From Verrucomicrobiota bacterium (lineage in GTDB: Bacteria; Verrucomicrobiota; Verrucomicrobiia; Limisphaerales; JAXMHQ01): a DNA stretch of 64,000 bases. The notes under the pieces were generated by a model, which did no database searches, was not told the DNA's origin, and saw only the letters and a program-made list of their open reading frames with translations. Where the stretch lies: positions 2,299-66,298 of the forward strand of contig JAXMHQ010000027.1 in the NCBI GenBank assembly GCA_046346665.1, in the 5' to 3' direction. The position numbers were made by a program, and so were the translations under genes. Shown piece after piece: positions 8,109 through 42,786 of this stretch (position 1 is its first letter; every line of letters begins with the position of its first letter).

Positions 8109-8265
8109 AACCACGGATGGACACGGATCAACACGGATGAAAAAGGCTTTGACGCGAATTCTCCCGAATTTTCGTTAATTGGGAAAAATTAGCGGTAATT
8201 CGCGTCAATTCGCGTCAAAAAGGCCTCCGTTTTTCATCCGTGTCCATCCGTGTCCATCCGTGGTT
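8109..8265. repeat. Nested palindromic element (ATCCGTG-type plus AATTCGCGTCA-type modules) in the tig/bioD divergent region
   Basis: The left arm AACCACGGATGGACACGGAT...TGACGCGAATT is mirrored by the right arm AATTCGCGTCA...ATCCGTGTCCATCCGTGTCCATCCGTGGTT. Confidence 0.8.
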
Positions 8266-11483: not shown

Positions 11484-13538
11484 TTACGGGGCTGCGCTTA
11501 ACTTCACGTAATCCAGTCCGAACATGTAGGCCTTCTGCGCCTGAGGATTCGCCCCGACAATTTCAACCGCCAGCACGTGATCGCCCGCGCTCAACGGGCG
11601 CGCGCCCAACGGCAGCTCGCCGGTCGACACCACCCATCCGTGGTAACCGTCAAATGGCGCGCCCAGCTTCTGGCCGTCCAGCCAGAGCTGCACAATCCCG
11701 TAATCCACCGCCTGCGTGAAGTGCCCCAGCAACTGGTATTGGCCCGCCTTCTCGACCGGGAACTCCAGCTCCAGCCGGTCGCCCGGCTTGCCGCCCGTCC
11801 ACCAAAGCTGGCCGTCCCCGCTCCACTCGTCGCCGAACCCCGCCATGTTCTGCTCCTGCGCCGCGCCGCCGGTCACCTTCAACACCTTCAATCGCTCCGC
11901 CTCCAGCGCGCCCGCCACGTGCCTGGGCTCCGGCAATACCCAGTTGCCCAGCCGCTCCTCCACCGGCGCCGCCTGGTAGGGATCGTTCCCGCCCGGCGCC
12001 AGGTACCAGTAAACCGTCGAGGCATACAAGGTCCCCCGCGCATTCGAAAAATATTTCTCGATGCAACCCTCGAATTGCTTCTGGAACGGCACCGCGTCCG
12101 GCACCTGGAACCGGTTCACCGACACGTGCCCGCGATTGTTCCCGTCGTTGTGAGTTTGATTGTGATAGGCGTTCCCGAACAAATCCGGGCAGCACCACGC
12201 GTAACCGAAATAATCCTCGGAGCCCGTCCCGAAGGTCGATGGGAACTTCTCCCCGTCCACAAAGAACTTCTCATCGCCCTCGCCCCACCAGCCGCCCCGC
12301 GCGTTCCAAATGTGCAGCGCCAGCCCCACGAACCGACCCGCGCCCGTCGTCTTCAGGAAAGGCCAGTCAATCTGCCGCTCCGGCTCCGTCGGCAACAGCT
12401 CGTCCCGGTGCCACTTCGCGTGAAACCGCGCATACCGCGCCGGGTCCTGCTTCAAATCCACCGAGCTGATTTCATACGACAACTTTCGCTCGCGCGGTCC
12501 GTCGTTGATGAATTTCACCTCCGCCCCCTTCGCGTACGGCATGTACCAGTTGGCGTAAAACCAGCCGTTCGATTCCATCCCGCAGGTCAGCGCCGAATAA
12601 ATGTTCACCCCCGGCGCCGTTCCAAAAAAATCTCCCAGCGGCGCCCAGACCGAACTGCCCCTGTCGCCGTCCCACCGCATTTGAATCGCCAGTTGCCTCA
12701 ACACGTCGCGGTCTTCCGGCGCCGGCGGCAATTCCACCTTCACCCGGATCAAGGCAATCGCGCCCGCGCCGTCCAGCCGCGCGCTTGTGGTTCCGCCATT
12801 CGCGCCCAGCACGCCTTCGCCGCGCGTGGTGCTGTGGGGCGCCTCGGATAAATCTCGCGGACCGCAGTGGCTCAACACGCGGTCCGCCTCGTCCAACGCC
12901 GCCTGGTCGTCCGGGCCCAGGTTGCGCGTGAAAGTCGGCACCTGCGTGCCCGCCGGGAACGTCGAGTATACGAAATGATAGTACGCACCCCAGTTTTCGT
13001 CGGCCACGATGCGGCACGATTTCGCATAGGGCACCGGCGTGTAATTGTTCCAGCCATGAGCCACCGTGTGCACCAGCGCCGGCCGCGTGAACGGCGCGTT
13101 TTGACCGTCGAAATATCCCGAGAACGGCAGGTCCACCGCCGGCTCCTTCGCCCCGTCCAGGTAAATCCGCACGTGCCCCGCCCCCGGCGTCGCCGACCAC
13201 ATCCGCCAAACGCATCCCGGGCCCTTCATCTCCGCGAGCACCAGCTTGCCGTCCTCCTTCCGAATCACCCCGTCTCCGTCGTTGTTCGCATCCCACCGCA
13301 CATACTTGCCCGTGCCCGCGTCATACCGACTCGCCCGGTCGTAACTCGAAAATTGCGCCGTCGTCTCGCCCGCCGCCGGCAGCAGCGACAGCGCTTCCAA
13401 ATCTGTCATCCGCCGCACCAGGTCGACATAGGTCATCACCCTCCCATCACCCGCCCCCGCCGCCGGCAGCGCCACCGCCACCCACAGCGCCACCCCAAAA
13501 CCGGCCAGACTCCCCGTGCATTTGATTTTCATAAGCAT
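11484..13538 (-). CDS. DUF2961 / GH172-family glycosidase with a C-terminal carbohydrate-binding-like domain, secreted
   Basis: 684-aa ORF with a signal peptide. The motifs SSYDR, GPGCVWRMW and GTGSEDYF are characteristic of DUF2961. Confidence 0.75.
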   Translation of the reverse strand: MLMKIKCTGSLAGFGVALWVAVALPAAGAGDGRVMTYVDLVRRMTDLEALSLLPAAGETTAQFSSYDRASRYDAGTGKYVRWDANNDGDGVIRKEDGKLVLAEMKGPGCVWRMWSATPGAGHVRIYLDGAKEPAVDLPFSGYFDGQNAPFTRPALVHTVAHGWNNYTPVPYAKSCRIVADENWGAYYHFVYSTFPAGTQVPTFTRNLGPDDQAALDEADRVLSHCGPRDLSEAPHSTTRGEGVLGANGGTTSARLDGAGAIALIRVKVELPPAPEDRDVLRQLAIQMRWDGDRGSSVWAPLGDFFGTAPGVNIYSALTCGMESNGWFYANWYMPYAKGAEVKFINDGPRERKLSYEISSVDLKQDPARYARFHAKWHRDELLPTEPERQIDWPFLKTTGAGRFVGLALHIWNARGGWWGEGDEKFFVDGEKFPSTFGTGSEDYFGYAWCCPDLFGNAYHNQTHNDGNNRGHVSVNRFQVPDAVPFQKQFEGCIEKYFSNARGTLYASTVYWYLAPGGNDPYQAAPVEERLGNWVLPEPRHVAGALEAERLKVLKVTGGAAQEQNMAGFGDEWSGDGQLWWTGGKPGDRLELEFPVEKAGQYQLLGHFTQAVDYGIVQLWLDGQKLGAPFDGYHGWVVSTGELPLGARPLSAGDHVLAVEIVGANPQAQKAYMFGLDYVKLSAAP

Positions 13539-18286: not shown

Positions 18287-18650
18287 GGGGCGAGACTCCG
18301 TCGAGCCCTCGAAAAAGTGGATCGTTGGATTATTGGATTGCTGGATGAATGGACAGACCGTCGCGCGGAAGCCATCCACTATAGCGGTTCAACATAAACC
18401 GTAGCCGCAGGTAGGGACGCCGCGCTGCGGCGTCCGCGGTCGGCGCAGCGCGCCGACCCTGCCTTTTGCGGCTACGACCTTTCTTAAGCCGCTCTAATAC
18501 ATCAATCCATTGATCCAATAATCCTCACGGCCAGGTCAGGGCTCGACGGAGTCGAGCGAATTTTCGCGAATCAAGAAGCAATTGGCGAAGATTCGCGTCA
18601 ATTCCCGTCAAAGCCTTTCATCCGTGTTTATCCGTGTCCATCCGTGGTTA
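18287..18650. repeat. Composite nested palindromic element sharing modules with 919-1152 and 8109-8265
   Basis: GGGGCGAGACTCCGTCGAGCCC (18287-18308) faces GGGCTCGACGGAGTC (18539-18553). TTGGATTGCTGGATG is at 18333-18347. Inner GC hairpins are GGACGCCGCgctGCGGCGTCC and GGTCGGCGCagcGCGCCGACC. A half element, ATTCGCGTCA...ATCCGTGTCCATCCGTGGTTAA, ends at the stop of the lipoprotein gene. Confidence 0.8.
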
Positions 18651-21104: not shown

Positions 21105-22685
21105 TCAAGCGGCCACCGCTTCCCGGCTGGCCTCGTTGCGATTCTGCACTTCCCCGCCCGCCGCAACCGCATCGCGGTCGAGCGTGTCCGCCGCGATCCA
21201 ACCGCTCATCAACGCCATCGGCATCCCCGGCCCCGGATGCACCGATCCACCCGCGAAATAAAGCCCCCGCACATCCGGCGAACGGTTTCCCGGCTTGAAC
21301 GCGCCCAGGAACCGGCCGTGGCTCGCCAGCCCGTAAATCGCGCCCTTCCAAACTCCGTAACGCTGCTCAATATCCTCCGGCGTCAGCACAGCCTCGGAAA
21401 GAATCCGCGATTCAATATCCGTCAGCCCCGCCGTCTTGCGCAGTTTCTGCAAAATCACCTGGCGATACAGCGGCAGGATCCGGCTCCAGTTGTGCCGCGG
21501 CCGCAAATAGGGCGTGTGCACCAGCACATACAACGCCTCCGCACCCTCGGGCGCGGCAGTCGAATCCGACCGGCTCGGCGCCGCCACATAACACGTCGGG
21601 TCCGGCGCCGGCTCGCCCCGCCGGTAAATCGCGTCGAATTCCTCCCCGGGATCCCGGCTGAACACGAAATTATGATGCGCCAGGTGCTCGTAACGCCGCT
21701 TCAATCCCAGGTACAACACCACCCCGGAACAGGCCGCCTCCAGGTGCTTCCGACCCAGAAACGCCCGCGACTTATCGTCCGGCATCATCTCCGAATGCGT
21801 CCGCACCACGTCCGAATTCGCCACCACCGCGTCGAACATCAGCGTCTCCCCCTGCTGCGTCAGGACCCCGCAGGCCCGGTCCCCCGCACAAATCACTTTC
21901 TTCACCGGCGTCTTCAGCCGGATCTCCACACCGAGATCCAGCGCCAGCCGGCTCAACGCCCGCGGCACGGACACAATCCCGCCTTCCGGGTACCAAACCC
22001 CCTCGCCCACCTGCATGTCCGCAATCCCGCACAGCACCGCCGGCGCCCACTCCGGGTTCGACCCCACATACTGCGTGAAATGATCCATCATCTGCGCCAC
22101 CCGCCGGTCCGGGTGATACGACCGCACCAGCCCCGCCACCGTCCGGCCCATCTTCATCGCCGCCACGTCCCGAACCATCCCCGACCCCCGCAACGACGGC
22201 CACTCCACCATGTCCGACAATCCCCCGATCGGCTTGTAAAAGAAATGGCGTTGGCTGATGTCGTTCAGCCGACGGCTGGTCTGCAAAAACGCCCGGTAAC
22301 CGGCCCCGCCCCCGGGCGTGAACGCGTCCAGCGATCGCGCCATCTCGTCGGCATCCTCCACCAAATCCAGTTTCGAACCGTCCTCGAAAAAACAGCGCCA
22401 CTGCGGATCCAATCGGATTAGTTTCAGATAGGCGTCCATCGGCCGGTTCGCCTCCTGGAACACCCGCCGCAACACCGACGGCAGCGTCAGAATCGTCGGA
22501 CCCATGTCGAACCGGAAATCCCCGTCCTGCCGCACCGCGGCCTTGCCGCCCGGCCACGCGTTCGACTCCAGCAGGGTGACCGCATATCCCCGCGCCGCCA
22601 GAGTGCATGCCGCCGCCAGCCCGCCCAGCCCGCCCCCCACAATTCCAACGCGCCCGCGACCGTGACCGTGACCGTTCGTATTCAT
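21105..22685 (-). CDS. Phytoene desaturase-family oxidoreductase (CrtI/CrtN/CrtP-like)
   Basis: FAD dinucleotide fold VGIVGGGLGGLAAA; GPTILTLPSVL; C-terminal GGSVHPGPGMPMA. Confidence 0.85.
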   Translation of the reverse strand: MNTNGHGHGRGRVGIVGGGLGGLAAACTLAARGYAVTLLESNAWPGGKAAVRQDGDFRFDMGPTILTLPSVLRRVFQEANRPMDAYLKLIRLDPQWRCFFEDGSKLDLVEDADEMARSLDAFTPGGGAGYRAFLQTSRRLNDISQRHFFYKPIGGLSDMVEWPSLRGSGMVRDVAAMKMGRTVAGLVRSYHPDRRVAQMMDHFTQYVGSNPEWAPAVLCGIADMQVGEGVWYPEGGIVSVPRALSRLALDLGVEIRLKTPVKKVICAGDRACGVLTQQGETLMFDAVVANSDVVRTHSEMMPDDKSRAFLGRKHLEAACSGVVLYLGLKRRYEHLAHHNFVFSRDPGEEFDAIYRRGEPAPDPTCYVAAPSRSDSTAAPEGAEALYVLVHTPYLRPRHNWSRILPLYRQVILQKLRKTAGLTDIESRILSEAVLTPEDIEQRYGVWKGAIYGLASHGRFLGAFKPGNRSPDVRGLYFAGGSVHPGPGMPMALMSGWIAADTLDRDAVAAGGEVQNRNEASREAVAA

Positions 22686-22686
22686 A

Positions 22687-24177
22687 TCAGTCCTTTCCTG
22701 TTGCTTTCTTCCAAATCACCCGAGCCAGCCGCGCCGCCGCGCCCAGCCGCAGCCGCCAGCCCGTCCCGTGCGCCAGTTGCAGCCCGCTCAACACCGCCTC
22801 CCCCGCCACCGCGTCCGCAGGGGAATACGCCGGACGAAACCCGCCCCGCGTCACCGTCACCACCCGCGGCGCCGTGACTTCCAAAAGACCCTCCGCCCCA
22901 CGCGTCGACCCAAACCCGCTCCAGCCCCGGCCCGCAAACGGCAGCCGCGGATCCGCCGTCGGCACAATCACGTCGTTCACCGTCACCACCCCGCACCGGA
23001 GCAAACCCGCCAGCTTCGACGCCGCCCCCAAATCCCGCGTGAACAAACTGGCCCCCAGGCCGTAACCCGACCCGTTCGCCAGCGCCAGCGCCTCCGCATC
23101 GTCCCGGACCGGAACCACCACCGCCACCGGAGCGAAAAATTCCGGCTCGAACAACCGCGCGGATCGGGACACCGATCCCATCACAACCGGCACACAGCCG
23201 GCGCGCCCAGCCACCCTCCGCGCCCCGTCCTGCATCGCCTCGTCCACACACACCTCCACCCCGCGCGGCGCCGGCTGAAAATCCGCCTCCGGCCGGTCCG
23301 CAAACAGCCCCGCCACCCGCGTTTCCAGTTCCGCCGCGCGCGAGGAGTGGACCAGCACCCGCTTCGGACACAAACATGTCGCGCCGCCGTTGAACGTCAG
23401 CCCAAACACCAGCGCCCGCGCCGCCAGGTCCACGTCCGCATCCTCGCGCACCCACAACACATCGCAGCCACTCAGCTCCATCACGGACGGAATCCCGGCC
23501 GGCGCCAGCCGCTCGAGCACCTGCAGCCCCGCGGCGCGCGACCCGGTGAAAAAAACCTTGTCCGGCCCCGATTCGATCGCCCGGTGCGCCGCGGCCGGTT
23601 CCTCGGACAACACGCGCGACAGCGCCGCGGGAAACCCGGCCTCGGTCAGCAATGTTGAAAACAGTTGAGCGACAGGAACGCCGCGGTTGCCGGGCTTCAC
23701 CAGCACCGCGTTTCCGGCGGCGAGCGCCTGGATCCATTGCACGCCGGGCAACAGGAGCGGATAATTCGACGGACCGATGATCAGCGCCACGCCGAGCGGC
23801 GCGCGCTGAATTTCGCTGCGAACCCCCGGCAGCCAGAACGGGCGGCCACGGACGCCGCAACGCCGCGGACGCAACACCGCCGAAGCGCGGCGTTCCAGAA
23901 ATCGGCACGCCTCCGCCAGAGGCAGCACCTCCGCCGCCACCATTTCCGCCGCGGGACGCCGGCGCGGCGCCGCCGAAGCCGCGGCCAGATCGGTTGCGCG
24001 GACCGCCAGAAGTTTCCTCAGCCGCCGCACACAACCCAGCCGCTCCGACAGCGGCACCTCGGCCCAGGTCCGTTGTACCGCCCGCATCTCATCCAGCTTG
24101 ATCACCACGGACCACGCCGCCGGACTGGGTTGATCCGGAAAATCGACGGGAATTCGGATGAGACCGGACGCGATCAT
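22687..24177 (-). CDS. Aldehyde dehydrogenase-family protein
   Basis: The ALDH catalytic region has MELSGCD (Glu) and FNGGATCLCPKRV (Cys). 496 aa. Confidence 0.8.
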   Translation of the reverse strand: MIASGLIRIPVDFPDQPSPAAWSVVIKLDEMRAVQRTWAEVPLSERLGCVRRLRKLLAVRATDLAAASAAPRRRPAAEMVAAEVLPLAEACRFLERRASAVLRPRRCGVRGRPFWLPGVRSEIQRAPLGVALIIGPSNYPLLLPGVQWIQALAAGNAVLVKPGNRGVPVAQLFSTLLTEAGFPAALSRVLSEEPAAAHRAIESGPDKVFFTGSRAAGLQVLERLAPAGIPSVMELSGCDVLWVREDADVDLAARALVFGLTFNGGATCLCPKRVLVHSSRAAELETRVAGLFADRPEADFQPAPRGVEVCVDEAMQDGARRVAGRAGCVPVVMGSVSRSARLFEPEFFAPVAVVVPVRDDAEALALANGSGYGLGASLFTRDLGAASKLAGLLRCGVVTVNDVIVPTADPRLPFAGRGWSGFGSTRGAEGLLEVTAPRVVTVTRGGFRPAYSPADAVAGEAVLSGLQLAHGTGWRLRLGAAARLARVIWKKATGKD

Positions 24178-25733
24178 GCAACCCTCGAATCACTTCGCCG
24201 TTCAAGGCGGGCATTGCCCAGGTCGCCAGCCGCACATTCCGCCCCCGAATCAGAGCCAGCACCAAGGTCCTCGAGCAACAACCGCGAACTGATGCGCGCA
24301 CTCTCGAAAATCACCGGCAAGCCGCTGCCCGGATGCGTCCCGCCCCCCACCAGATACATTCCGTCAAGGTCCTCAAACCGGTTGTGCGGCCGCAGGTGCA
24401 ACATCTGGTCCAGCGTGTGCGCCAGATTGAACGTCGCCCCCCGATAAATCTCATACCGCGAATCCCAGTCGGCCGGCGTGATCACCCGCTCATACACAAT
24501 CCTCTCCGACAACCCGCCGTAACCCGCCTGCGAGAGCGCGGAGAGCAGGCGCTCCCGGAACGGACCGCGCTCGCGCGACCAGTCGACGTTCGGATGCTGA
24601 TGCGTCACCGGCGCCAGCACATACAGCGCGCTGTGCCCGCGCGGCGCCAGCGACGGATCCGTCACGCAGGCGTTCTGAACGTAAAAACTCGGGTCTTCGC
24701 TGAGCACGTGGCGATTCTCGATTTCATCCAGGTTCTTCGCGTAATCCCGCGCGATGTGAATCGTGTGATGCGGCAGATCAAAGGTTCCCTTCACGCCCAG
24801 GTACATCATGAACGTGCTGCAGGAATATTTCTTCGACGCCAGCTTCCGGTTGGTCCAGCGCCGGCGCAGCGAATCCGGCACCAGCCGCTCCATCGCCCGC
24901 GCAAAATCCGCGTTCACCACCACCGCGTCCGCCCGCAACACCCCCGCCCGCGTCCGCACCCCCACCGCCCGCCGGCCCGCAAACAGGATCTCCTCCACCG
25001 GTTCGTCCAGCCGGATCTCCACCCCCATCCGCGCCGCCACGCGCGCCATCGCCTCCGTCACCGACGCGCACCCGCCCATCGGGTGCCATACCCCATGCTC
25101 GTATTCCAGAAAGCTCAGAATGCTGAACAGGCTCGGACACCGGAACGGCGACATGCCGAGATATTTCGACTGAAAGCAAAACGCCAGGCGCACCCGCTCA
25201 TCCTTGAAAAATCGCTTCAGATAATCGTCGATCGACCTGTGCGGCCTCAACTCCGGCAGCAGCCGCAATAGCCGCGCGCTCAACAAATCCTTCCAGCCCT
25301 CGAACGGCTGATGCAAACACGGCTCCATCCGCTCCAGCTTGGTCCGGTTCTCCCGCAAAAACCGGCCAAACCCCGGCACGTCCCCCGGCGACAACGCCGC
25401 AATCTGCCGCTCCATCGACGCCAGGTCCGGCGTGCAGTCCAGCCGCCCGCCCGCCCCAAATTGAATCCGATATTGCGGATCCAACCGCACCATCGGCACC
25501 TCGGCCTGCAACGACGTTCCCGCCGCCTGAAAGATCTCGTCCAAAACCCGCGGGTACAGAAAAAACGTCGGCCCCAAATCAAATCGAAAGCCGTCGGCCT
25601 CAATCCGCGAAGTACGGCCACCCAACACCGGCAGCCGCTCCACCACCGTCACCCGCACCCCGGCAGCAGCAAGTAAAATGGACGCCGCCAACCCGCCTGG
25701 CCCCGCTCCCACAATCACAACATGCTTTGACAT
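24174..25733 (-). CDS. Phytoene desaturase-family oxidoreductase (CrtI/CrtN-like); first gene of the operon
   Basis: MSKHVVIVGAGPGGLAAS FAD fold; C-terminal GGGTHPGSGLPVI. ATGA overlap with the downstream ALDH gene. Confidence 0.85.
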   Translation of the reverse strand: MSKHVVIVGAGPGGLAASILLAAAGVRVTVVERLPVLGGRTSRIEADGFRFDLGPTFFLYPRVLDEIFQAAGTSLQAEVPMVRLDPQYRIQFGAGGRLDCTPDLASMERQIAALSPGDVPGFGRFLRENRTKLERMEPCLHQPFEGWKDLLSARLLRLLPELRPHRSIDDYLKRFFKDERVRLAFCFQSKYLGMSPFRCPSLFSILSFLEYEHGVWHPMGGCASVTEAMARVAARMGVEIRLDEPVEEILFAGRRAVGVRTRAGVLRADAVVVNADFARAMERLVPDSLRRRWTNRKLASKKYSCSTFMMYLGVKGTFDLPHHTIHIARDYAKNLDEIENRHVLSEDPSFYVQNACVTDPSLAPRGHSALYVLAPVTHQHPNVDWSRERGPFRERLLSALSQAGYGGLSERIVYERVITPADWDSRYEIYRGATFNLAHTLDQMLHLRPHNRFEDLDGMYLVGGGTHPGSGLPVIFESARISSRLLLEDLGAGSDSGAECAAGDLGNARLERRSDSRVA

Positions 25734-25882
25734 GTCTAAATTATGTCTAACAACAACGCGTTTGTCAATTGTTTGTCTAATTTATATCGAAAAACTCACA
25801 ATTCATTGTAGAGTAAAATATTACATTAATATTTTACACCGATTTGCGAAAAACTTCTTGATTATGTCTATGTTTTGTTTAA
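25733..25882. promoter_or_regulatory. Three pairs of 11-bp-spaced direct repeats (TGTCTAA-like); candidate CarH/LitR-type operators
   Basis: TGTCTA occurs at 25733 and 25744; TGTCAA at 25763 and TGTCTA at 25774; TGTCTA at 25865 and TGTTTA at 25876. The first unit, aTGTctAaaTt, fits nTGTnnAnnTn, which is the reverse of the reported CarH repeat nAnnTnnACAn. Confidence 0.5.
25740..25768 (-). promoter_or_regulatory. Candidate sigma-70 promoter of the carotenoid-type operon, predicted to give a leaderless mRNA
   Basis: On the minus strand the sequence is TTGACA (25768-25763), N17, then CATAAT (25745-25740). Only 6 nt separate the -10 element from the A of the start codon at 25733. Confidence 0.5.
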
Positions 25883-25911
25883 TTTCCTCATCAGTGAATG
25901 CACATCATTCG

Positions 25912-26823
25912 ATGAAGGTGGCGGCTCAGCGGACCGGGTTGTCGCCTCACGTGATCCGGGTCTGGGAACGGCGTTATCGCGCGGTGTCCCCTGCGCGGAC
26001 CGGGTCGCGGCGGCGGTTGTATTCGGATGAGGAATTGGAGCGACTTTTATTGCTGCGTCAGGCGACGGAGCGCGGGCACAGCATCGGCGACATTGCGGCG
26101 CTGCCGTCGGAGCGCTTGCGGGCGCTCGCGGGCGAAACCGGGTCCGCCGCGGTTCGAATTCCCGGCGCGCCTCTCGACGAGGGACGCATGTTGGACGAGG
26201 CGGTGGCCGCGGTTCAAAAGATGGATGCCGCGGCGCTGAATGCCGTGTTGCAGCGCGGCTCCGTCCGGCTGGGAACCCAGGGCCTGCTGCTGCGTGTCAT
26301 CGGCCGCATGGTTCACGACATCGGTGAACGCTGGCGCCGCGGTGAGATGACCGCCGCCCACGAACATTTCGCCAGCGCGGTCATTCGCACGTTCCTTTCC
26401 CAGTCGTTGCGCGGATTTTCCGATTCCGTCTCGGCCCCGGTCCTGATTGTTTCGACGCCCCCCGGACAACTGCACGAGTTGGGCGCATTGCTGGCCGGGG
26501 CGGTCGCGTCCGGCCTCGGCTGGCAGGTGGCCTATCTCGGCCCCAGCCTGCCCGCCGCTGAGATCGCAGGCGCCGCCGTCCAAAAACACGCCCGCGGCGT
26601 CGCCCTCAGCCTCGTCTATCCCGAGGACGATCATCGCTTGCCCGCCGAACTGGAGCGGCTCCGCGAACTGCTCCCGGCCGAGATTCCCATCGTCGCCGGC
26701 GGCCGCGCCGGCCGCGCCTACGCACGCACCCTGGCCGCCATCGGAGCCGAACGCGTCGAGGATCTCGACCAATTGGAGCGCGTTCTCGAATCGTGGCGCC
26801 GCCCCCAACCGCAGCCCGCCTGA
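25912..26823 (+). CDS. carH: MerR-family, B12-binding light-responsive regulator (CarH/LitR type)
   Basis: N-terminal MerR helix-turn-helix (MKVAAQRTGLSPHVIRVWERRY). Wx9EH motif (WRRGEMTAAHEH). B12-binding loop LHELGALL. The start is chosen at the ATG at 25912. Confidence 0.8.
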   Translation: MKVAAQRTGLSPHVIRVWERRYRAVSPARTGSRRRLYSDEELERLLLLRQATERGHSIGDIAALPSERLRALAGETGSAAVRIPGAPLDEGRMLDEAVAAVQKMDAAALNAVLQRGSVRLGTQGLLLRVIGRMVHDIGERWRRGEMTAAHEHFASAVIRTFLSQSLRGFSDSVSAPVLIVSTPPGQLHELGALLAGAVASGLGWQVAYLGPSLPAAEIAGAAVQKHARGVALSLVYPEDDHRLPAELERLRELLPAEIPIVAGGRAGRAYARTLAAIGAERVEDLDQLERVLESWRRPQPQPA

Positions 26824-27032
26824 TGAAATCGTTCTTCAAACCCAACCTCGCCCCCGCCGGCCGCCGCGCCCGCGCCACAACCGCCGTCCTTCTCCTCCTG
26901 GCCGCAGCCGGCATGGCCTTCGTCTTCATCCCCGCCGCCATCGCCCTCGCGATCTCCGCCTGCTTCGTCGCCTTCGAAGCCGCCCGCGGCTGGTGCGTCC
27001 TTCGCGCCTGCGGCATCAAGACGCGCTTGTGA
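26823..27032 (+). CDS. DUF2892 (YgaP-like) small membrane protein
   Basis: MKSFFKPNL...GWCVLRACGIKTRL. The ATG overlaps the carH stop (TGATG). Confidence 0.7.
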   Translation: MKSFFKPNLAPAGRRARATTAVLLLLAAAGMAFVFIPAAIALAISACFVAFEAARGWCVLRACGIKTRL

Positions 27033-27222: not shown

Positions 27223-27263
27223 GATTACAATCTGCTTGACCCGAATTGACCACAAGTGTAATC
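27223..27263. promoter_or_regulatory. Candidate BlaI-type operator: inverted GATTACA ... TGTAATC half-sites flanking two TTGACC boxes
   Basis: GATTACA (27223-27229) and TGTAATC (27257-27263) lie 27 bp apart, 27 nt upstream of the blaI ATG. TACA/TGTA cores are typical of BlaI/MecI/CopY boxes, but this spacing is atypical. Confidence 0.3.
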
Positions 27264-27289
27264 GTTGGCGCCAGTGAAAGAGGTTGAAC

Positions 27290-27691
27290 ATGCCTGGCAC
27301 GCCAAGGATCACTGAAACCGAGTGGGAAATCATGCGGGTGGTGTGGCAAACACATCCTATCGCCGCGTCGGCGATCGTCGATCGGCTTGCGGCGCAGGAT
27401 CCGACCTGGCATCCGAAAACGGTTCGCACCCTCCTCAACCGTTTGCTCCGCAAGAAGGCGCTGCGTCACCAGGTCCGCGGCCGCGCCTATCTTTATGAAC
27501 CTTGCGTCAGCGAAGCCGAATGCGCCGCGGCGGCCAGCGAATCGTTTCTCGACCGGGTCTTTGGCGGATCCATGAAACCGATGCTCGCGTATTTCGTCGA
27601 AGCCCGCCGCCTCACGAGGGAGGACCTGAAGGAACTTCGGAATCTGTTGGATGCTCCAAATCCCAAGCCCAGGAGAAAGACATGCAAATGA
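27290..27691 (+). CDS. blaI: BlaI/MecI/CopY-family transcriptional repressor
   Basis: ITETEWEIMRVVW...TVRTLLNRLLRKKAL is the penicillinase-repressor winged helix. The SD sequence AAAGAGG lies 6 nt upstream of the ATG at 27290. Confidence 0.85.
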   Translation: MPGTPRITETEWEIMRVVWQTHPIAASAIVDRLAAQDPTWHPKTVRTLLNRLLRKKALRHQVRGRAYLYEPCVSEAECAAAASESFLDRVFGGSMKPMLAYFVEARRLTREDLKELRNLLDAPNPKPRRKTCK

Positions 27692-30600
27692 TGGAAATCG
27701 CGCCGTTTTTGGTGGGAATCGGCCGCTGCTCGCTCCAGGCCGGGGCGCTGGTGCTGATGGTTCTGCTTGTGCAATGGCTGTTGCGCCGGCGGCTCTCGCC
27801 CAGGTGGCGCTGCGCGCTCTGGCTGCTGGTGGCCGGCCGGCTGATGCTCCCCGTGTCGCTGAGCAGCAGCTTCAGCCTGTTCAATCTCGTCCCGCAATCG
27901 CCCCCTCCGCCCGCACCCTCAACGAGGGCCCCGGCCGATGGGGCCGGATATCGCCCTGCGGTAATGGATTTCTCCGCCCCGAAAATCGAAACCATCCCCC
28001 GTTTCGCGGCGGAACCGTTGCTGCCGCCCGCGATGAAAAACCCCGTCGCGCAGCCTGACCTTGCGACCGGCCATCACCTCCCATGGAACGGGATCCTCTT
28101 CTCCGCCTGGCTGGCCGGCGTGCTGGTTCTGGGCGGCCGGCTGGCGGGATCCACGTTCCGGCTGCGACGCCGCATTTCGACGCTGCCTGCCCTCCTCGAT
28201 CCCGAAGTGGAATCCGTCGTCGAATTGTGCCGCAGGCAAATGGGCATGCGTTCCAGCCCGAGGGTGGTGGAGACCGGGGTGGTGTCCAGCCCGGCCTTGT
28301 ACGGCGTCTTCCGGCCGCGGTTGTTGTTGCCGCCGGGCATTGCCGGCCGGTTCACATCCCGGGAGTTGAGATTCATCTTCCTCCACGAATTCGCTCACCT
28401 CAAACGTCGGGACCTGCTCGTGCAATGGGTGTTCGCAACGCTCCAGATCCTGCACTGGTTCAACCCGCTGGTCTGGCTCGCGTTCGCCCGCTGGCGCGCC
28501 GACCGTGAGCTGGCCTGCGACGCGCTTGTTCTGGAAACCGGCGGGGAGGGACAGAATCGTGACTATGGCCGGACGATCCTGCACCTGCTGGAAAGCCTTC
28601 CCGGGCGGGCGCCGACGGCCGGGACGGTGGGCATCCTGGAGGACAAACAACAATTGCGGCGGCGCATCCAGGAAATCGCCCGATTCAAACCCGCCACCCG
28701 CGGTTCCCTGCTCGCCATCTTCCTGCTTGCCGCCATTGCCGTCGGCTGCCTCACCGATGCCAGGAGCCGGTCCACATCGCCCGCGGCAAAACCGCACGCG
28801 GCGCTTCCGCTCCCGCTGGATCTGACCCGTTATCAGCTGCCGTGGATGGTCAACTTTGCCCAAATCACCAATATCGCCGCGCATCAGACGCTGGACGGAC
28901 TCCCGTTCAACACCGACGGCAACGCCGTTCTCTACGGACAAGGCTGCGAAATGCGGTCGCGCAACGTCTATCCCCGCCAACTCGAAGGCATCCGGGTCGG
29001 CTGCGCCTTCGCCGAGCTGCACCTGGTGCACTATGGGATCTGGCTGGAAATGGACGGATCCGAACTGGCCCTTATCCGGCTGAATTACGCGGATGGAACC
29101 CACGCAGAGTTGCCCATGATCTACGGGGTGCACTTCAGGGACTGGCTGCGCCAGCCAACCGAAGAAAAAGAGACGGTATCGGACCCGGACACCAAGATTT
29201 GTTTCCGCTTTCCCCAGGCCGAAGGCGGCACCCGGCTCTTCAAGACGAAATTGCTGAACCCCCAACCGAAAAAAATCGTGGAATCGATCGACGTCCTTTC
29301 CACCGGCCATTTCGGCTCCTACGTCCTGGTCGCCGCGACAGTCGCGGCCAAGGATTCCTCACGCCCGATCACGCCTGGCCTGCCCTGGCTGCCGGATCGC
29401 CATTTCGACGGAACCCTAGCCGTGCGGGTCGTGGACCAGGACAACGGTTTGCCCATTGCGGGAGCCCTGGCATTGAATGCGATGGCGGCCGCCGCCCCGG
29501 CAAACTGGTCGCCGCTGTTCTATTCCGATACGAACGGGGTCGGGAAAATCCACTTTCCTGTCGGCCACACCGACATGATTTCAGTCCAGGTGCAGAAGGA
29601 CGGATATCAGCCGGCCTCCGTCGGGTGGCAGAACGAGGCCATACCCGCGCAATACACGATCCGGCTTTCGAAGAACCCTGTTTCCCCCGCCGCGGGCGCG
29701 GAATCGCAGGAGCCGCTGTGCCTGGATATCCGGCGATTTTACCATGATTTGATGAGCCGTCCGGAGGATCCGCTGAAGGCGTTTGGCGGACGGCAGGTGA
29801 TTGACGGGCTGCCTTTCCAGCTCGATGGCGAAGCGATGCTGTTCAGCACGTCTTCTTCCGAAACGGACCTGCCTTTGGAGCTGTCAGGCATTCGCATTGA
29901 CCGCAGGTTCGACGAACTCGACCTGATCGATTACGCCGGCTGGCCCGATGTTGACGGGGAAACCGTGGCGTTCATCCGGTTGAACTACGCCGACGGAACC
30001 CAGCATGATTTCCCAATTCTGTACGGAGTGCACGTGCGCGATTGGTTCCAGATGCCGTCGGAGGAAAAGGAGATCCTGACAGACCCGGACACCAAGGTCT
30101 GCTGGCGCCGCCCGCCGTTGTATTTCAAAGCTCCCATCCGCATCTTCAAAAGCCGGCTGCTCAATCCGCATCCGGAGAAGGTTGCCTCCACCATGGACGT
30201 CATTTCGGCGAAGCATCGGTCCACTTACACGCTGGTCGCCGCGACCGTGGCGAATCGTGATCCGAACCGCCCGGTGACGCCGCCCGCCCCGCCGCTGGTG
30301 CCGGACCGGCCGTTTGACGCGGCGGTCGTCATCCAGGTGCTCAACGACCAGACCGGCCAGCCGATCCCGGACGTGGTGCTGAGCCCCTATTTCACGGTGG
30401 ATGATGAGGGCATTGTCGGCAATCCAATCAAGACTTCCGCCGACGGCATTGGCCGGATGCGCTACCCAAAGGCCCGAACCGCATCGCTGAGTGTGACTTC
30501 CGTGTCGGAAGGGTATTCAACCATGGGCGCCAACTGGCAGGCGGGATCCATCCCCGGCGAGATCACGTTTCGGCTCACTCCGGAGAAGGTCTACACCGGC

Positions 30601-33117
30601 AGGATCAGCGGCGTCGTGGTCGATGAAAAGGGCCGGCCGGTCCTCAACGCCACCGTTCGCGCCGAAGCATATAATTTTGGCTACCCAAACGCCCCGTTCG
30701 TCCGTCTGCCGAGGGCGGCCATCCAGACGGATGGGGAGGGGCGGTGGACACTGACGGGCTTCCCGGAGAAGTTCCAGGACTTCGGATTGACGGTCCATTG
30801 CCAGGGCTATCCCGAACTGACCTTCCTGGCCGACGGCCCGATCGATCGCGGCATCATCGGCAAGCACGTCAGCACCGCGGATTTCTGGTCGGGCAAAGCC
30901 GTGCTGCAACTGGAGCGGGGCGCCGAATTATCCGGCGCCGTGCGTGACATTGAGGGCAAACCCGTGACCAATGCCGTGGCCTACCTCGGATTCAACCGCG
31001 TTGGCAACGCCTCGATGACAGCGAGGACCGATGCCACAGGCCGTTTTACGTTGAGCGCCTTAAAACTGGGGGATGACTATCTCACGATCACGGCCGGAGG
31101 CCTCAGCCCGCATTACCAAATGATTAAGATTGCTTCGACCAATCCTCCCCTGGACCTGGTCCTCAAGCCGGCCCGGGCGATTCGCGGGCGGGTGGTGGAC
31201 TCCGCGGGCCAGCCGGTGCCCGGAGCGAGCGTGATCTACGACGGTTTAAACAGCGGGATGGTCCGGATGGAGCACCGGGAGGAGTGGCTATCGCGAACCG
31301 ATGCGGAGGGCAGGTTCAGCTGGGACTCGGCACCCGCACCTGCGTTTCTTCTGAATGTCTCTAAACCGGGTTACATGGCACTCCTCTGGTCAACCGTTCC
31401 GGCAGAGATCACGAATGAAATCGCGCTCAAGCTGGCACCACCTTTGAAAATCCACGGATCGGTCATCGACGCCGACACCGGGGAACCCATCGGCAGCTTC
31501 CGCGTCACGCCAGGCTGGCCCCAAAACGGATTGGCGCAGGTCCGCCTGCAGGAGGAGCAGGGAAAAACATTTTCCGCGGGGCGCTACGAACTCACGCTCG
31601 ACCAGCCGCTGGTGATCAGCACCTCGCCTTACGACTACGTCCTCCAGATAAGCGCCGAGGGCTACGCTCCCGTGCTGTCACCCTTGATCCGGCCGGATGC
31701 CGGCGATGCCCCATTTGACGCGAAGCTCAAGAAAACCCCCATGATCGATGGCCGAATCCTGGATTCGCAAGGCAATCCGATGGCGTCTGCCTCCGTCCAA
31801 ATCGCCGGGCCGGAGGACTACCTGCAATTGTCGGGTACGCGAATCGTGAATCAAGGCAACCAGGCAACCTCTATCCAATCCGATACCAAAGGCCGCTTCA
31901 AGCTGGCGCCGCGCATCGGCAGTTATGCGCTGATCGCGGCTGCAGATTCCGGTTTTGGCATCGTTCAGAGCGATGACATCTCGAACCGGGTGGACCTGGT
32001 GGTGAAGCCGTGGGGCCGAATTGAAGGCGTCCTGCTCAAAAACGGCCGGCCGGCCGGCAATGAGTCCGTTTACTATTTCGCCGGGGCCAGCACATCGCAG
32101 CAAATCAATACGACGCCGGCTTCCACCGATGCCGAAGGCCGGTTCGTCCTCGAACACGTCCCGCCGGGCGACATCAAACTTCAATTGAAACAACCCCTGT
32201 CCGAACGGTCCTGGTCGTATCTCCCCCTGCAAAGCCTGGTCGTGGATGCCGGCGCGACAAACCGGGTGACCGTCACGCTCGAAGGCCGCGACGTGATCGC
32301 ACACCTGGCGCTTCCGGCCGACCTCACCGGCGACCTCGGCGCCCTCGAGGGCAATATCATGCTCACGCCGGACATCACCAATCGCCCGGCGGTGCCGAAG
32401 GATACCCCGGATCCCGGACGCTGGATGCGCGACTGGCTGAAGACCGCTGCGGGGCGGGATTACCAGGAAGCCATGAACCGGCGCCGATTTCTGCGGAGGG
32501 ATTCGGACGGCACGTTGCGCGGCAGCAGTGTAACGCCTGGAAGTTATCACGTGACCGGGTCCTTTTATCAAAACGGATCCACCCTGGCGCAGTTGGAGAC
32601 CACAAATGTAGTGATTCCCGGCCCCGGCGGGGGAGAGGAAGACAAGCCGCTTGATTTGGGCACCTTCAAAGTCAAAGCCCTGAAGACACTCAAAGTGGGG
32701 GCGATGGCTCCTGATTTTCATGTTAAAACCCTCGACGGCGCGCCGCTCTCCTTGTCGCAATTCCGGGGCAAATACGTCCTGCTCGATTTCTGGGCGGTCT
32801 GGTGCGGACCCTGCGTGGCCGAAACGCCGCACCTGAAAGCGGTCTATGATGCGTTCCAAAAGAATGACCGCTTCGCAATGGTCAGCCTCAGCCTGGATCC
32901 GGACGTGGAAACGCCAAAAAAATTCTCACGGGAGAAGCAAACCGCCTGGATCCAGGGCTTCCTTGGGGAATGGTCCAAGGATACGTTGACCGCCGATTAC
33001 GGTGTTTACAGCATTCCATCGATCTTCCTGGTCGGCCCGGACGGCCGGATCGTGGCGATGGGCCTTCGTGGACCAGCCATTATGGCAGCGGTGGAGGCGG
33101 CGCTCAATGCCCGCTAA
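27682..33117 (+). CDS. Giant BlaR1/M56-peptidase sensor fused to repeated extracytoplasmic domains and a C-terminal TlpA/ResA-like thioredoxin
   Basis: The start MQMMEIAPFLVG overlaps the blaI stop. M56 zinc motif FLHEFAHLKRRD. A TM segment follows at about aa 390. Then come two units of about 300 aa, at least six CarboxypepD_reg-like beta-sandwich signatures (for example IRGRVVDSAGQPVPGASV), and a C-terminal FWAVWCGPC thioredoxin motif. Confidence 0.85.
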   Translation: MQMMEIAPFLVGIGRCSLQAGALVLMVLLVQWLLRRRLSPRWRCALWLLVAGRLMLPVSLSSSFSLFNLVPQSPPPPAPSTRAPADGAGYRPAVMDFSAPKIETIPRFAAEPLLPPAMKNPVAQPDLATGHHLPWNGILFSAWLAGVLVLGGRLAGSTFRLRRRISTLPALLDPEVESVVELCRRQMGMRSSPRVVETGVVSSPALYGVFRPRLLLPPGIAGRFTSRELRFIFLHEFAHLKRRDLLVQWVFATLQILHWFNPLVWLAFARWRADRELACDALVLETGGEGQNRDYGRTILHLLESLPGRAPTAGTVGILEDKQQLRRRIQEIARFKPATRGSLLAIFLLAAIAVGCLTDARSRSTSPAAKPHAALPLPLDLTRYQLPWMVNFAQITNIAAHQTLDGLPFNTDGNAVLYGQGCEMRSRNVYPRQLEGIRVGCAFAELHLVHYGIWLEMDGSELALIRLNYADGTHAELPMIYGVHFRDWLRQPTEEKETVSDPDTKICFRFPQAEGGTRLFKTKLLNPQPKKIVESIDVLSTGHFGSYVLVAATVAAKDSSRPITPGLPWLPDRHFDGTLAVRVVDQDNGLPIAGALALNAMAAAAPANWSPLFYSDTNGVGKIHFPVGHTDMISVQVQKDGYQPASVGWQNEAIPAQYTIRLSKNPVSPAAGAESQEPLCLDIRRFYHDLMSRPEDPLKAFGGRQVIDGLPFQLDGEAMLFSTSSSETDLPLELSGIRIDRRFDELDLIDYAGWPDVDGETVAFIRLNYADGTQHDFPILYGVHVRDWFQMPSEEKEILTDPDTKVCWRRPPLYFKAPIRIFKSRLLNPHPEKVASTMDVISAKHRSTYTLVAATVANRDPNRPVTPPAPPLVPDRPFDAAVVIQVLNDQTGQPIPDVVLSPYFTVDDEGIVGNPIKTSADGIGRMRYPKARTASLSVTSVSEGYSTMGANWQAGSIPGEITFRLTPEKVYTGRISGVVVDEKGRPVLNATVRAEAYNFGYPNAPFVRLPRAAIQTDGEGRWTLTGFPEKFQDFGLTVHCQGYPELTFLADGPIDRGIIGKHVSTADFWSGKAVLQLERGAELSGAVRDIEGKPVTNAVAYLGFNRVGNASMTARTDATGRFTLSALKLGDDYLTITAGGLSPHYQMIKIASTNPPLDLVLKPARAIRGRVVDSAGQPVPGASVIYDGLNSGMVRMEHREEWLSRTDAEGRFSWDSAPAPAFLLNVSKPGYMALLWSTVPAEITNEIALKLAPPLKIHGSVIDADTGEPIGSFRVTPGWPQNGLAQVRLQEEQGKTFSAGRYELTLDQPLVISTSPYDYVLQISAEGYAPVLSPLIRPDAGDAPFDAKLKKTPMIDGRILDSQGNPMASASVQIAGPEDYLQLSGTRIVNQGNQATSIQSDTKGRFKLAPRIGSYALIAAADSGFGIVQSDDISNRVDLVVKPWGRIEGVLLKNGRPAGNESVYYFAGASTSQQINTTPASTDAEGRFVLEHVPPGDIKLQLKQPLSERSWSYLPLQSLVVDAGATNRVTVTLEGRDVIAHLALPADLTGDLGALEGNIMLTPDITNRPAVPKDTPDPGRWMRDWLKTAAGRDYQEAMNRRRFLRRDSDGTLRGSSVTPGSYHVTGSFYQNGSTLAQLETTNVVIPGPGGGEEDKPLDLGTFKVKALKTLKVGAMAPDFHVKTLDGAPLSLSQFRGKYVLLDFWAVWCGPCVAETPHLKAVYDAFQKNDRFAMVSLSLDPDVETPKKFSREKQTAWIQGFLGEWSKDTLTADYGVYSIPSIFLVGPDGRIVAMGLRGPAIMAAVEAALNAR

Positions 33118-33120
33118 GCC

Positions 33121-33306
33121 GTCTCTATAAAGTTCAAAAAAACTCAAACTCACGCAGAGACGCAGAGGACGCAGAGGGCCGCAGCGAAACGGGTCAGACA
33201 AATCGCTCACTAATCGGTGACCCCGAAAGAGCCGCCAGTTCTCTGCGAATCTCTGCGCCCTCTGCGCCTCTGCGTTTATCCCCAGGAAAACCAACTGCAT
33301 AGAGAC
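33121..33306. mobile_element. 186-bp MITE-like palindromic element (CGCAGAG-type core)
   Basis: Terminal inverted repeats are GTCTCTAT (33121-33128) and ATAGAGAC (33299-33306). Internal inverted arms are CGCAGAGACGCAGAGGACGCAGAGGGC and GCCCTCTGCGCCTCTGCG. The element is flanked by GCTAAGCC (33113-33120) and GGCTAAGCC (33307-33315). Confidence 0.6.
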
Positions 33307-33315
33307 GGCTAAGCC

Positions 33316-33501
33316 GGAACGATTCAGTTGAAAAGGCTTTTAACCACGGATAAACACGGATGGACACGGATAAAAAACCGCCGCACTCCTAGAATCAAAC
33401 CCAAACCAAACGGTGAGTTGAAAGCACCCCCGGAAACTGGCTTTCACCATTCTGTATCCGTGTGAATCCGTGTTCATCCGTGGTTTAAACTGAATCGTTC
33501 C
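33316..33501. mobile_element. 186-bp MITE-like palindromic element (ATCCGTG-type core)
   Basis: 14-bp terminal inverted repeats are GGAACGATTCAGTT (33316-33329) and AACTGAATCGTTCC (33488-33501). Internal arms are AACCACGGATAAACACGGATGGACACGGAT and ATCCGTGTGAATCCGTGTTCATCCGTGGTT. The element is flanked by GGCTAAGCC (33307-33315) and GGCTAAGAC (33502-33510). Confidence 0.6.
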
Positions 33502-33514
33502 GGCTAAGACCCCT

Positions 33515-33565
33515 GCCCGCGGCTGGTGCGTCCTTCGCGCCTGCGGAATAAAAACAAAGCTCTGA
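33515..33565 (+). pseudogene. Orphan 3' fragment of a DUF2892 gene (encodes ARGWCVLRACGIKTKL-stop)
   Basis: The first 32 bp are identical to 26982-27013, inside the intact DUF2892 gene. The following codons still encode GIKT(K/R)L-stop but with different nucleotides. No upstream coding part is present. Confidence 0.7.
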
Positions 33566-34718: not shown

Positions 34719-35870
34719 ATGATCCCCACGTTTCGGCCCCACCTCGACGGCGATGAACTGCGCGCCGTTGGACGCGTCTTCGACAGCCGCTGGCTCGGAA
34801 TGGGCGACGCCGTCCGCGCCTTCGAAGAGCGCCTCCAGGAATTCCTCGGCGTTCCGCACGTGGTCGCCGTCGGCCACGGCACCGCCGCCCTGCACCTCGC
34901 CCTGGATGCGCTCGATCTCCAGCCCGGCGACGAAGTGCTCGTCCCCTCGCTCACCTTCGTCGCCACCGTCCAGGCCATCCGCCTCGCCGGCGCCATCCCG
35001 GTGTTCTGCGAAGTCGATCCCGAATCGCTCAACCTCGATGTCGCGGACGCCCTCGACCGGCTGTCCCCCCGGACCCGCGCCGTGATGCCGGTTCATTTCG
35101 CCGGGTTGCCTTGCGACATGGAACCCCTCGTCGACGCCGGCAGGCGCCACGGCTTCCGCATTGTGGAGGATGCCGCCCACGCCTTCGGCGCCGGCCTGAA
35201 CGGGCGTAAAATCGGCGCCTGGGGCGACCTCACTTGTTTCAGTTTCGATTCGATCAAACACATCACCTGCGGGGAAGGCGGCGCCGTCTAGAAAAAAAAC
35301 GCCGACTGGGCGGAACGCCTCCGGCAGCGCCGCCGGCTCGGCATGGACCCCGCCGCGCCCGGCGAAGGCCGCGTCGATGCCCACTGGCAATACGGTGTCA
35401 TGGGCCACGGCTTCCGCTATCACATGTCGGACATCAACGCCGCCATCGGCCTGGTCCAACTGGAAAAACTGCCGCGGTTTCTCCAGCGCAAACGCCAGAT
35501 CGTCCGGCGCTACGACGAGGAATTGTCCGGTTTGCCCGGCCTCCAGTTCGTCCGCCGCAACCTCGAGGAAGCCTGCCCCTGGGCTTACGTACTGCGCATC
35601 CTGAACGGCCGGCGCGAGGCCTTCCGCGATCACCTCCGGAATCGCGGAATCGCCACCCTGGTCCAGTTCGTGCCCAACCATCTCCAGCCCGCATTCGCTC
35701 CCTGGCGCACCCCGCTGCCCGTCACCGAGCGGCTCTTCGACGAAATCGTCACCCTTCCACTCTTCACCGAAATGACCGACGCCGATGTCGATCAGGTCCT
35801 GGCTGCCGCAAAATCATTTCTGGACGTCCCGGCGCGCGTGGAGCTGGCCTGCGGAGCCCCCACCCCATGA
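34719..35870 (+). pseudogene. DegT/DnrJ/EryC1/StrS-family sugar aminotransferase interrupted by one in-frame TAG
   Basis: ORFs 34719..35291 and 35343..35870 are in the same frame. Translation across the junction reads CGEGGAV-stop-KKNADWAERLRQRRRLGMD, which continues the family alignment. The TAG is at 35289-35291 and is followed by an A8 run (35292-35299). Confidence 0.75.
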
Positions 35871-42592: not shown

Positions 42593-42786
42593 AACAGGCG
42601 GCGCGACAACCGGATTGAGGAGGAGAGGGCCGGCGTGAGGGCTAATTCAATCGAGGAGATGCCGAGCTCCGACCGTGATTGCGATTCAATCCTGATTCAT
42701 GTGCATCCGTGTCCATTCGTGATTGCCTCGGCGTCTCTGTGTCTCCGCGGTGATCCATTTGGTGCACTTCGCGGTTGGCCGCAAAG

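Follow-up and report, generated by a model that had tools for sequence, protein, structure and literature searches.

The locus described here lies in a stretch of 64,000 nucleotides, hereafter the window, from a Verrucomicrobiota bacterium (assembly GCA_046346665.1, contig JAXMHQ010000027.1, positions 2,299-66,298 of the forward strand), with positions counted from the first letter of the window. The source is a Verrucomicrobiota metagenome-assembled genome (MAG) and the cassette is that of an uncultured bacterium. It consists of blaI, encoding a repressor of the BlaI/MecI/CopY family, followed on the same strand by a gene for an 1811-residue M56 membrane metalloprotease, and is best explained as an autoregulated two-gene cassette of the BlaIR family that operates by regulated proteolysis. 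The best reading of the pair, and a reasonably probable one, is that of a BlaIR-type proteolytic derepression switch that would respond to a signal other than beta-lactams. Such a switch had been proposed in an earlier note on this DNA, and the proposal is supported by the catalytic residues of the protease, a cleavage position in register within BlaI, the topology, a dyad within the promoter and the lack of a beta-lactam sensor domain.

In the proposed mechanism a BlaI dimer would occlude the TTGACC-N17-TAATCG promoter of its own operon. A signal would be perceived by the ~1450-residue periplasmic part of the M56 protein and relayed via the fourth transmembrane segment (TM4) to the cytoplasm-facing protease, which would cut BlaI at Y101|F102 and so break the dimer. 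The cleavage of BlaI would then derepress the operon, together with any other genes in the genome that carry the dyad.

The two genes are tightly joined. The blaI open reading frame (ORF; 27290-27691, +) is preceded by a GAAAGAGG ribosome-binding site and encodes a winged-helix repressor of 133 residues, with its TGA stop (27689-27691) falling within the first codons, ATG CAA ATG ATG, of the large M56 ORF, which runs uninterrupted for 5.4 kb from the ATG at 27682 to 33117 (+). The overlap that the earlier note had described between the stop of blaI and the start of the 1811-residue protein is thus 10 nt if counted from the ATG at 27682, whilst an alternative M56 start at the ATG at 27688 would give the classic ATGA overlap with the blaI stop. 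Sequence comparison shows blaI to be translationally coupled to the gene for the M56 membrane metalloprotease. The 1811-residue protein has a counterpart with 100% identity at NCBI, under the name 'MAG: M56 family metallopeptidase [Verrucomicrobiota bacterium]', and an independent Logan contig carries both genes. The arrangement is also found elsewhere, with blaI immediately 5' of, and overlapping, the M56 gene in every orthologous locus for which there is DNA. Of the eight GTDB loci with the closest BlaI genes, six have an M56 gene next downstream. The M56 partners of these closest BlaI proteins vary at the C-terminus, which may be a dead thioredoxin, a PD40 propeller or nothing at all, so that a stable BlaI/M56 core is combined with a shuffled periplasmic part. 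In loci L008 and L013 only short ORFs (195 and 153 residues) follow the blaI relative, perhaps because the gene is frameshifted or fragmented or because the partner is of another kind.

The N-terminus of the large protein is a zinc-metalloprotease membrane domain (residues 1-362; 27682-28767, +), delimited by Pfam, hydropathy and alignment to BlaR1. It matches Pfam Peptidase_M56 (PF05569) over residues 14-331 with an E-value of 4e-57 and 194.1 bits against a cutoff of 31 bits, and it can be aligned without gaps to Staphylococcus aureus BlaR1 (8exp, 3e-10), as expected from the BlaR1-type protease with a HEFAH motif that the earlier note had recognised. The motif lies at residues 235-239 (28384-28398), its H235, E236 and H239 corresponding to H201, E202 and H205 of the BlaR1 HExxH motif, in which the two histidines bind zinc. 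The zinc ligand E242 of BlaR1 is E276 here, the active-site aspartate D246, mutation of which abolished induction in BlaR1 (PMC9834060), is D280, and the functionally important arginine pair R293/R294 is R327/R328. The roles of these residues are those given in the 2023 paper on the cryo-electron microscopy structure of BlaR1, which also places the autocleavage site at S283|F284 and not at R293|R294 (PMC9834060). The active site, asked after as possibly degenerate, therefore aligns with every one of these seven residues present, and the HExxH motif is found in 120 of 120 homologs.

Four membrane segments are predicted from hydropathy, at about residues 6-38, 42-67, 132-157 and 335-362, and the loop with the protease lies between the third and TM4, a four-segment topology that is a hydropathy estimate plus homology to BlaR1. 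Because there are four hydrophobic segments, the ~1450 residues beyond about residue 362 should be extracytoplasmic, as they are in BlaR1. There is no transpeptidase or beta-lactamase family among the Pfam matches of the 1811-residue protein, and the NCBIfam model blaR1_generic reaches 170 bits against its 400-bit cutoff and is matched at profile positions 104-324 of 585 only, which is the protease part. On these comparisons the protein is without a classical beta-lactam sensor, and the replacement of that sensor by a large extracytoplasmic region, claimed before from the letters, holds. Both proteins of the pair score well under the NCBIfam BlaR1 and BlaI equivalog cutoffs, and from these low scores, together with the restriction of the BlaR1 match to the protease, the locus is therefore to be regarded as a BlaIR-like pair and not as a beta-lactam sensor.

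The repressor itself is a clear member of its family, matching Pfam Penicillinase_R (PF03965) with an E-value of 2.7e-33 and 115.2 bits (cutoff 22.6) over profile positions 1-114 of 115. It can be aligned over its full length to MecI and BlaI, the match to MecI (1sd6) having an E-value of 2e-19 and covering about residues 5-121. In an alignment of this BlaI with 11 other verrucomicrobial BlaI proteins and with BlaI and MecI of S. aureus, the S. aureus cleavage bond N101|F102, which lies in the C-terminal dimerisation domain, is in register with Y101|F102, the phenylalanine on the C-terminal side of the bond (P1') being conserved, and the same position reads H, Y or F followed by F or Y in the 11 relatives. 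Y101|F102 is thus the predicted scissile bond.

A 16-bp dyad, GACCACAAGTGTAATC (27248-27263, +), forms the candidate BlaI-type operator and is the best match to GAYTACANNTGTARTC in the window, with one mismatch, matches with up to two mismatches numbering two in the window against 0.07 expected. The putative promoter comprises the -35 box TTGACC (27236-27241, +), an N17 spacer and the -10 hexamer TAATCG (27259-27264), with the dyad covering the spacer and overlapping the -10, and therefore the arrangement is that expected for repression by promoter occlusion. What regulates the operon would thus seem to be a TACA/TGTA-type dyad placed inside its own promoter. The upstream regions of three orthologous loci (reached via the proteins P0002, P0006 and P0007), of eight GTDB loci with the closest BlaI relatives and of the window itself were compared, and the dyad, with the consensus GAYTACAnnTGTARTC, is found in all 12 of these independent loci, 42-57 nt before the start of blaI. 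A TTGAC or TTGCC box stands 6 nt 5' of the dyad in several loci, such as L005, L012 and L007, so that the geometry of -35 box and dyad is conserved as well. Most loci have a second copy of the dyad 21-31 nt before the blaI start, and the window has no such downstream copy. Owing to its weak -10 hexamer the blaI promoter was missed by a simple promoter scan, and a simple terminator scan found none that was convincing after the M56 gene.

The operator had been drawn differently in the earlier note, as an inverted GATTACA and TGTAATC pair around two TTGACC boxes. All of these are literally present, the second TTGACC box (27246-27251) supplying the left half of the dyad and TGTAATC (27257-27263) being its right half, but their geometry is not the conserved element, and GATTACA-N27-TGTAATC was rejected as the operator unit since the comparison of the 12 loci shows the 16-bp dyad instead. 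The GATTACA at 27223-27229 (+) is a lone upstream half-site that matches the left half, GAYTACA, of the consensus, with the expected right half agreeing at 1-2 of 7 positions and the -35 box occupying that space; in related loci such GATTAC-type half-sites belong to full dyads. The suggested search for further operator boxes gave, in the window, only one site beyond the dyad of the operon itself, GACCACAAATGTAGTG (32598-32613, +). It has two mismatches and is intragenic, about 80 nt before the part that encodes the thioredoxin, and was dismissed as a chance or lineage-specific match because a -35 box at the usual spacing is missing and the orthologous loci do not share the site. In the flanks of the related loci, which extend up to 16 kb, the dyad was not found elsewhere apart from one match in L005, where GACTACATGCTTAGTC (12671-12686), a weak dyad-like site with two mismatches, lies just past the M56 stop.

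The periplasmic region begins with two repeat units. The first (28810-29676, +) consists of a domain here called X (residues 377-570) and a transthyretin-like beta-sandwich (residues 571-665), the second (29716-30585, +) of X at residues 679-873 and a beta-sandwich at residues 874-968. Tiled self-comparison found residues 365-667 and 667-970 to be 35-50% identical with tile E-values from 1e-30 to 3.5e-50, and each unit is an all-beta X domain of about 195 residues followed by a sandwich of about 95 residues. X matches no Pfam or NCBIfam model, so that the two units of about 300 residues from an unrecognised family, reported from the first reading, prove to be unannotated in their first part and transthyretin-like in their second. 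The end of each unit is a degenerate CarboxypepD_reg-type domain, weakly detected in the first unit and supported by the structure model. The AlphaFold model of unit 2, built from an alignment of 29 sequences, has a predicted local distance difference test (pLDDT) score of 94.1 and a predicted template modelling score of 0.90, and its C-terminal part resembles carboxypeptidase D domain II and transthyretin-like domains in fold. A model of X only (pLDDT 91.8) has a sole significant neighbour in the PDB, AziU2/U3, at an E-value of ~1e-4, a template modelling score of ~0.53 and 12-14% identity, all other fold matches of the two-domain and X-only models being non-significant jelly rolls.

Whilst X carries no family name, it is not rare. 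A profile searched against 1.84 billion representative proteins matched 4377 clusters at E<=1e-3, of which 2637 reached <=1e-10 and 349 reached <=1e-30, where some of the weaker matches may stem from the transthyretin-like half of the profile. Among the 120 closest M56 homologs about 40 have X directly behind TM4, some of them with ankyrin, secretin or WD40/PD40 C-termini. It is also found free, in proteins of about 300-340 residues with signal-peptide or lipobox-like N-termini, in combination with CBM9 and Laminin_G_3 or with PD40 domains in other proteins, and in six Hanks-type Ser/Thr kinases, where it lies on the C-terminal side of a single membrane segment or of several. Because it is common to two unrelated classes of membrane transducer, X is the best candidate for the sensor, and the two membrane-proximal X units are most likely the module that would bind a ligand or partner. 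The tandem duplication of X recurs in P0008, P0026, P0064 and P0171, and among the best 150 representative matches only the query unites M56, two X units, CarboxypepD_reg repeats and a thioredoxin. It is tempting to go further and regard the X unit, a jelly-roll-like beta-sandwich with its transthyretin-like domain, as a sensor module outside the cytoplasm that is new and yet very widespread in Verrucomicrobiota and the wider Planctomycetes-Verrucomicrobia-Chlamydiae group, common to M56 proteases and Hanks-type Ser/Thr kinases, with the free lipoprotein copies perhaps acting as co-receptors or competitors, and with the tandem X units and the redox-active thioredoxin tip of this protein possibly integrating ligand binding with the redox state of the periplasm, but this wider proposal is a tentative one and rather doubtful as a whole.

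Distal to the X units are six CarboxypepD_reg (transthyretin-like) beta-sandwich domains (residues 969-1534; 30586-32283, +), found in tile scans with E-values from 5e-7 to 6e-15, in agreement with the at least six carboxypeptidase-regulatory-like domains counted earlier. For the whole protein CarboxypepD_reg (PF13620) scores 155.7 bits against a 32.3-bit cutoff (3.9e-46) in five stretches. With the sandwiches of the repeat units there are six to eight such domains and they are likely to be a spacer or scaffold. A region with no family match in Pfam tile scans follows (residues 1535-1665; 32284-32676, +), and it is this region that holds the dyad-like site at 32598-32613.

The protein ends in a thioredoxin-fold domain of the TlpA/ResA type (residues 1666-1811; 32677-33117, +), directly followed by the stop. 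Over residues 1671-1795 Pfam finds AhpC-TSA (5.8e-18, 65.5 bits), Redoxin (50.6 bits) and Thioredoxin_8 (55.3 bits), each exceeding its cutoff, and the closest solved chain is the TlpA-like 2lrn of Bacteroides (5e-22), followed by ResA and TlpA. The WCGPC motif lies at residues 1707-1711 (32800-32814), and the positions of CxxC and of the cis-proline are aligned, with 'SIP' here against the 'GFP' of 2lrn, so that the intact TlpA/ResA-like thioredoxin of the earlier note is borne out. The NCBIfam equivalogs are not reached, with 67.8 bits against 170 for ResA and 58.5 against 230 for TlpA. A C-terminal thioredoxin fold is present in 83 of the 120 best homologs and WCGPC in 14 of these 83, the 14 being the clade of the query itself and 45-65% identical in the thioredoxin domain. 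The motif reads WSERS in 26 and WSDRS in 12 of the 83, and most of the others lack at least the first cysteine. As most relatives that keep the fold are without the cysteines, its conservation usually serves something other than thiol chemistry, and redox sensing cannot be the general mechanism of the family. The terminal domain is likely redox-competent in the clade of the query, which may have kept or regained redox activity, and likely a redox-dead binding module in most relatives.

The pair can be compared with several known systems. With BlaR1/BlaI and MecR1/MecI of S. aureus and Bacillus licheniformis it shares a repressor gene with an M56 gene beside it, the four-segment topology with a gluzincin site facing the cytoplasm in which HExxH, Glu, Asp and Arg-Arg are all aligned, a TACAnnTGTA-type dyad in the promoter and the scissile position in register with its P1' phenylalanine. 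It differs from them in that the class-D beta-lactamase-like (transpeptidase) sensor is replaced by the ~1450 residues of two X units, six to eight transthyretin-like domains and a thioredoxin, in the order of the genes, which is blaI and then M56 with overlapping codons, and in having no divergent effector gene of the blaZ or mecA kind. It is set apart as well by the autocleavage site, the residue before the scissile bond and the sub-cutoff scores. A likeness is also seen with CenIR of Clostridioides difficile, PvmSR of Pseudomonas aeruginosa and BlaIR of Mycobacterium tuberculosis and M. abscessus, in which an M56 protein without a beta-lactam-binding domain is found beside a BlaI-like repressor and the signal is not a beta-lactam. 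An M56 gene near a blaI-like gene, with no penicillin-binding domain, is what defines an atypical BlaIR system (PMC13492132), and this is what is found here. The C-termini of those proteins are short, largely disordered or absent, whereas here the region is very long, well-folded and multidomain, and neither the X unit nor a thioredoxin is found in any of the characterised atypical systems. The last domain resembles TlpA, ResA and DsbE in its thioredoxin fold, WCGPC, cis-proline and best solved matches, yet it ends an 1811-residue signalling protease rather than forming a small membrane-anchored protein, has sub-equivalog scores and has its cysteines replaced in most relatives. The distribution of X, after membrane segments of M56 proteases and Hanks-type kinases and in free lipoproteins, is reminiscent of shared extracytoplasmic sensor modules such as PASTA and Cache on kinases, but unlike these X matches no Pfam or NCBIfam model and has only AziU2/U3 as a significant fold neighbour.

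Such systems are known to be common. In the 2026 Journal of Bacteriology paper on CenIR about 15,000 M56 proteins fell into 254 architectures, with about 6% having a penicillin-binding (beta-lactam sensor) domain, about 96% lying within five genes of a BlaI-like repressor and a CarbopepD_reg-type partner being among the frequent architectures (PMC13492132). A 2026 preprint reports that a BlaIR pair of P. aeruginosa controls virulence and not resistance (10.64898/2026.08.03.742534), and most BlaIR systems lack a beta-lactam sensor but are still regulators of genes (PMC13492132; 10.64898/2026.08.03.742534). A literature search found nothing specific on M56 or BlaR proteins in Verrucomicrobia or Planctomycetes and no paper on the verrucomicrobial architecture. 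The rarity that the earlier note implied was wrong, as the scored candidates include over 1,100 homologs with E<=1e-10, and many of these have all of the same domains. Dozens of relatives in uncultured Verrucomicrobiota combine M56, CarboxypepD_reg and AhpC-TSA/Redoxin, and the automatic label used by JGI is 'beta-lactamase regulating signal transducer with metallopeptidase domain/peroxiredoxin'. Several homologs lie together on one contig or in one MAG, so that the family is an expanded paralogous one, and the window holds no paralogs of blaI, M56, X or the thioredoxin. The system is thus a fairly ordinary member of a large, recognised but uncharacterised class, with a few new details.

A number of observations weigh against the derepression switch. 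The residue before the scissile bond of BlaI (P1) is tyrosine here, and histidine, tyrosine or phenylalanine in the relatives, rather than asparagine, and the autocleavage site S283|F284 of BlaR1 aligns with G317|I318 and is not conserved, so the autocleavage step may be different or absent in the 1811-residue protein. The choice of X as the putative sensing domain comes from domain co-occurrence. There is also no second intergenic operator in the window, and with only the weak L005 match in the related flanks, no member of a regulon beyond the operon itself is therefore visible. This last observation, the operon's own dyad being the only intergenic one in the window and in the flanks of the 12 loci bar that weak match, is what a self-regulated effector would predict, in which the output is the giant M56 protein, acting as a periplasmic scaffold that is anchored in the membrane and carries a reductase, and the BlaI/M56 core feeds back on its own level or assembly without a wider regulon. 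It would also fit that no gene is conserved beside the pair and that arrays of X, CarboxypepD_reg and thioredoxin without a detectable M56 domain exist (P0175, P0152, P0148). Nevertheless, some of these arrays may be truncated metagenome ORFs, the operator search of the organism's own genome covered 64 kb only, and the characterised atypical BlaIR systems control other genes (PMC13492132), so that this explanation is considered improbable.

Similarly unlikely is a redox switch in which the WCGPC disulfide of the distal TlpA-like thioredoxin would sense thiol stress in the envelope and trigger the M56 protease. The intact CxxC and cis-proline would suit such a role, the closest solved relatives are periplasmic thiol-disulfide oxidoreductases, and WCGPC is kept by every one of the 14 clade members although they are only 45-65% identical, a sign that the cysteines are under selection. 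Against this, in most relatives with the fold the motif is WSERS, WSDRS or the like, which makes them incapable of thiol chemistry, so the conserved role of the fold does not need the cysteines, and the scores fall under the NCBIfam ResA and TlpA equivalog cutoffs. The domain is moreover some 1300 residues and about ten domains from the membrane, a poor place from which to transmit a small conformational change. The thiol/disulfide stress that the earlier note had suggested as the signal is thus weakened as an explanation for the family, and for the query itself it is a minority possibility. That the pair is an inactive relic which no longer signals, the protein being merely structural in the envelope, is very improbable, as all 120 homologs keep HExxH, the query has every other catalytic residue, its 5.4-kb ORF runs without a break, and the operator and the translational coupling are conserved; nothing speaks for it directly, the nearest to support being the autocleavage site that is not conserved and the one full dyad against two in most relatives. 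The proteolytic derepression switch with a signal other than beta-lactams is therefore retained as the best reading.

The genes around the pair in the window are carotenoid and sugar-modification genes, and no flanking gene is conserved across the loci apart from an aldo-keto reductase gene near the pair in two otherwise non-syntenic ones (L002, 14495-15733; L005, 6210-7445). Upstream, two phytoene-desaturase-like flavin oxidoreductases and an aldehyde dehydrogenase (-) are divergent from a regulator with MerR and B12-binding domains of the CarH/LitR-like type (25678-26823, +), the whole (21105-26823) looking like a light-regulated carotenoid cluster that is apparently unrelated to the blaI pair. 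A small ORF and possible gene of 79 residues with a hydrophobic core and no Pfam match (26793-27032, +) lies directly 5' of the blaI promoter. Downstream, a gene for a DegT/DnrJ/EryC1-type aminotransferase (34719-35870, +) has a single in-frame TAG (35289-35291) after ...GEGGAV, with homology resuming in the same frame, and could be a pseudogene, an assembly error or a case of recoding.

Immediately 3' of the M56 gene, 33110-33527 contains nested palindromes, of which 33110-33134/33293-33317 encloses a hairpin rich in CGCAGAG. A second inverted repeat (33338-33377/33450-33489) is 40 nt long, 85% complementary and has CACGGATnnn repeats. The CACGGAT motif is also found at 8112-8262, 18619-18646 and 42704-42721, with 11 matches against 0.02 expected in the window, and looks like a dispersed element resembling repetitive extragenic palindromes or miniature inverted-repeat transposable elements.

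What is new here is the operator consensus, the delineation of the X family, which is linked to Ser/Thr kinases, and the finding that most relatives with the thioredoxin fold have lost its cysteines. Current views are not overturned, since the diversity of BlaR sensor domains has already been published (PMC13492132). The promoter-embedded consensus is usable for the prediction of regulons in complete verrucomicrobial genomes, and the X family, being large, unannotated and common to proteases, kinases and lipoproteins, merits a family model and a search for its ligand, whilst the loss of the cysteines is a warning against reading redox sensing from the name of a domain. If the derepression switch is true, the pair would be one example of Verrucomicrobiota employing the BlaI/M56 regulated-proteolysis chassis for envelope sensing in general, with periplasmic modules that can be exchanged.

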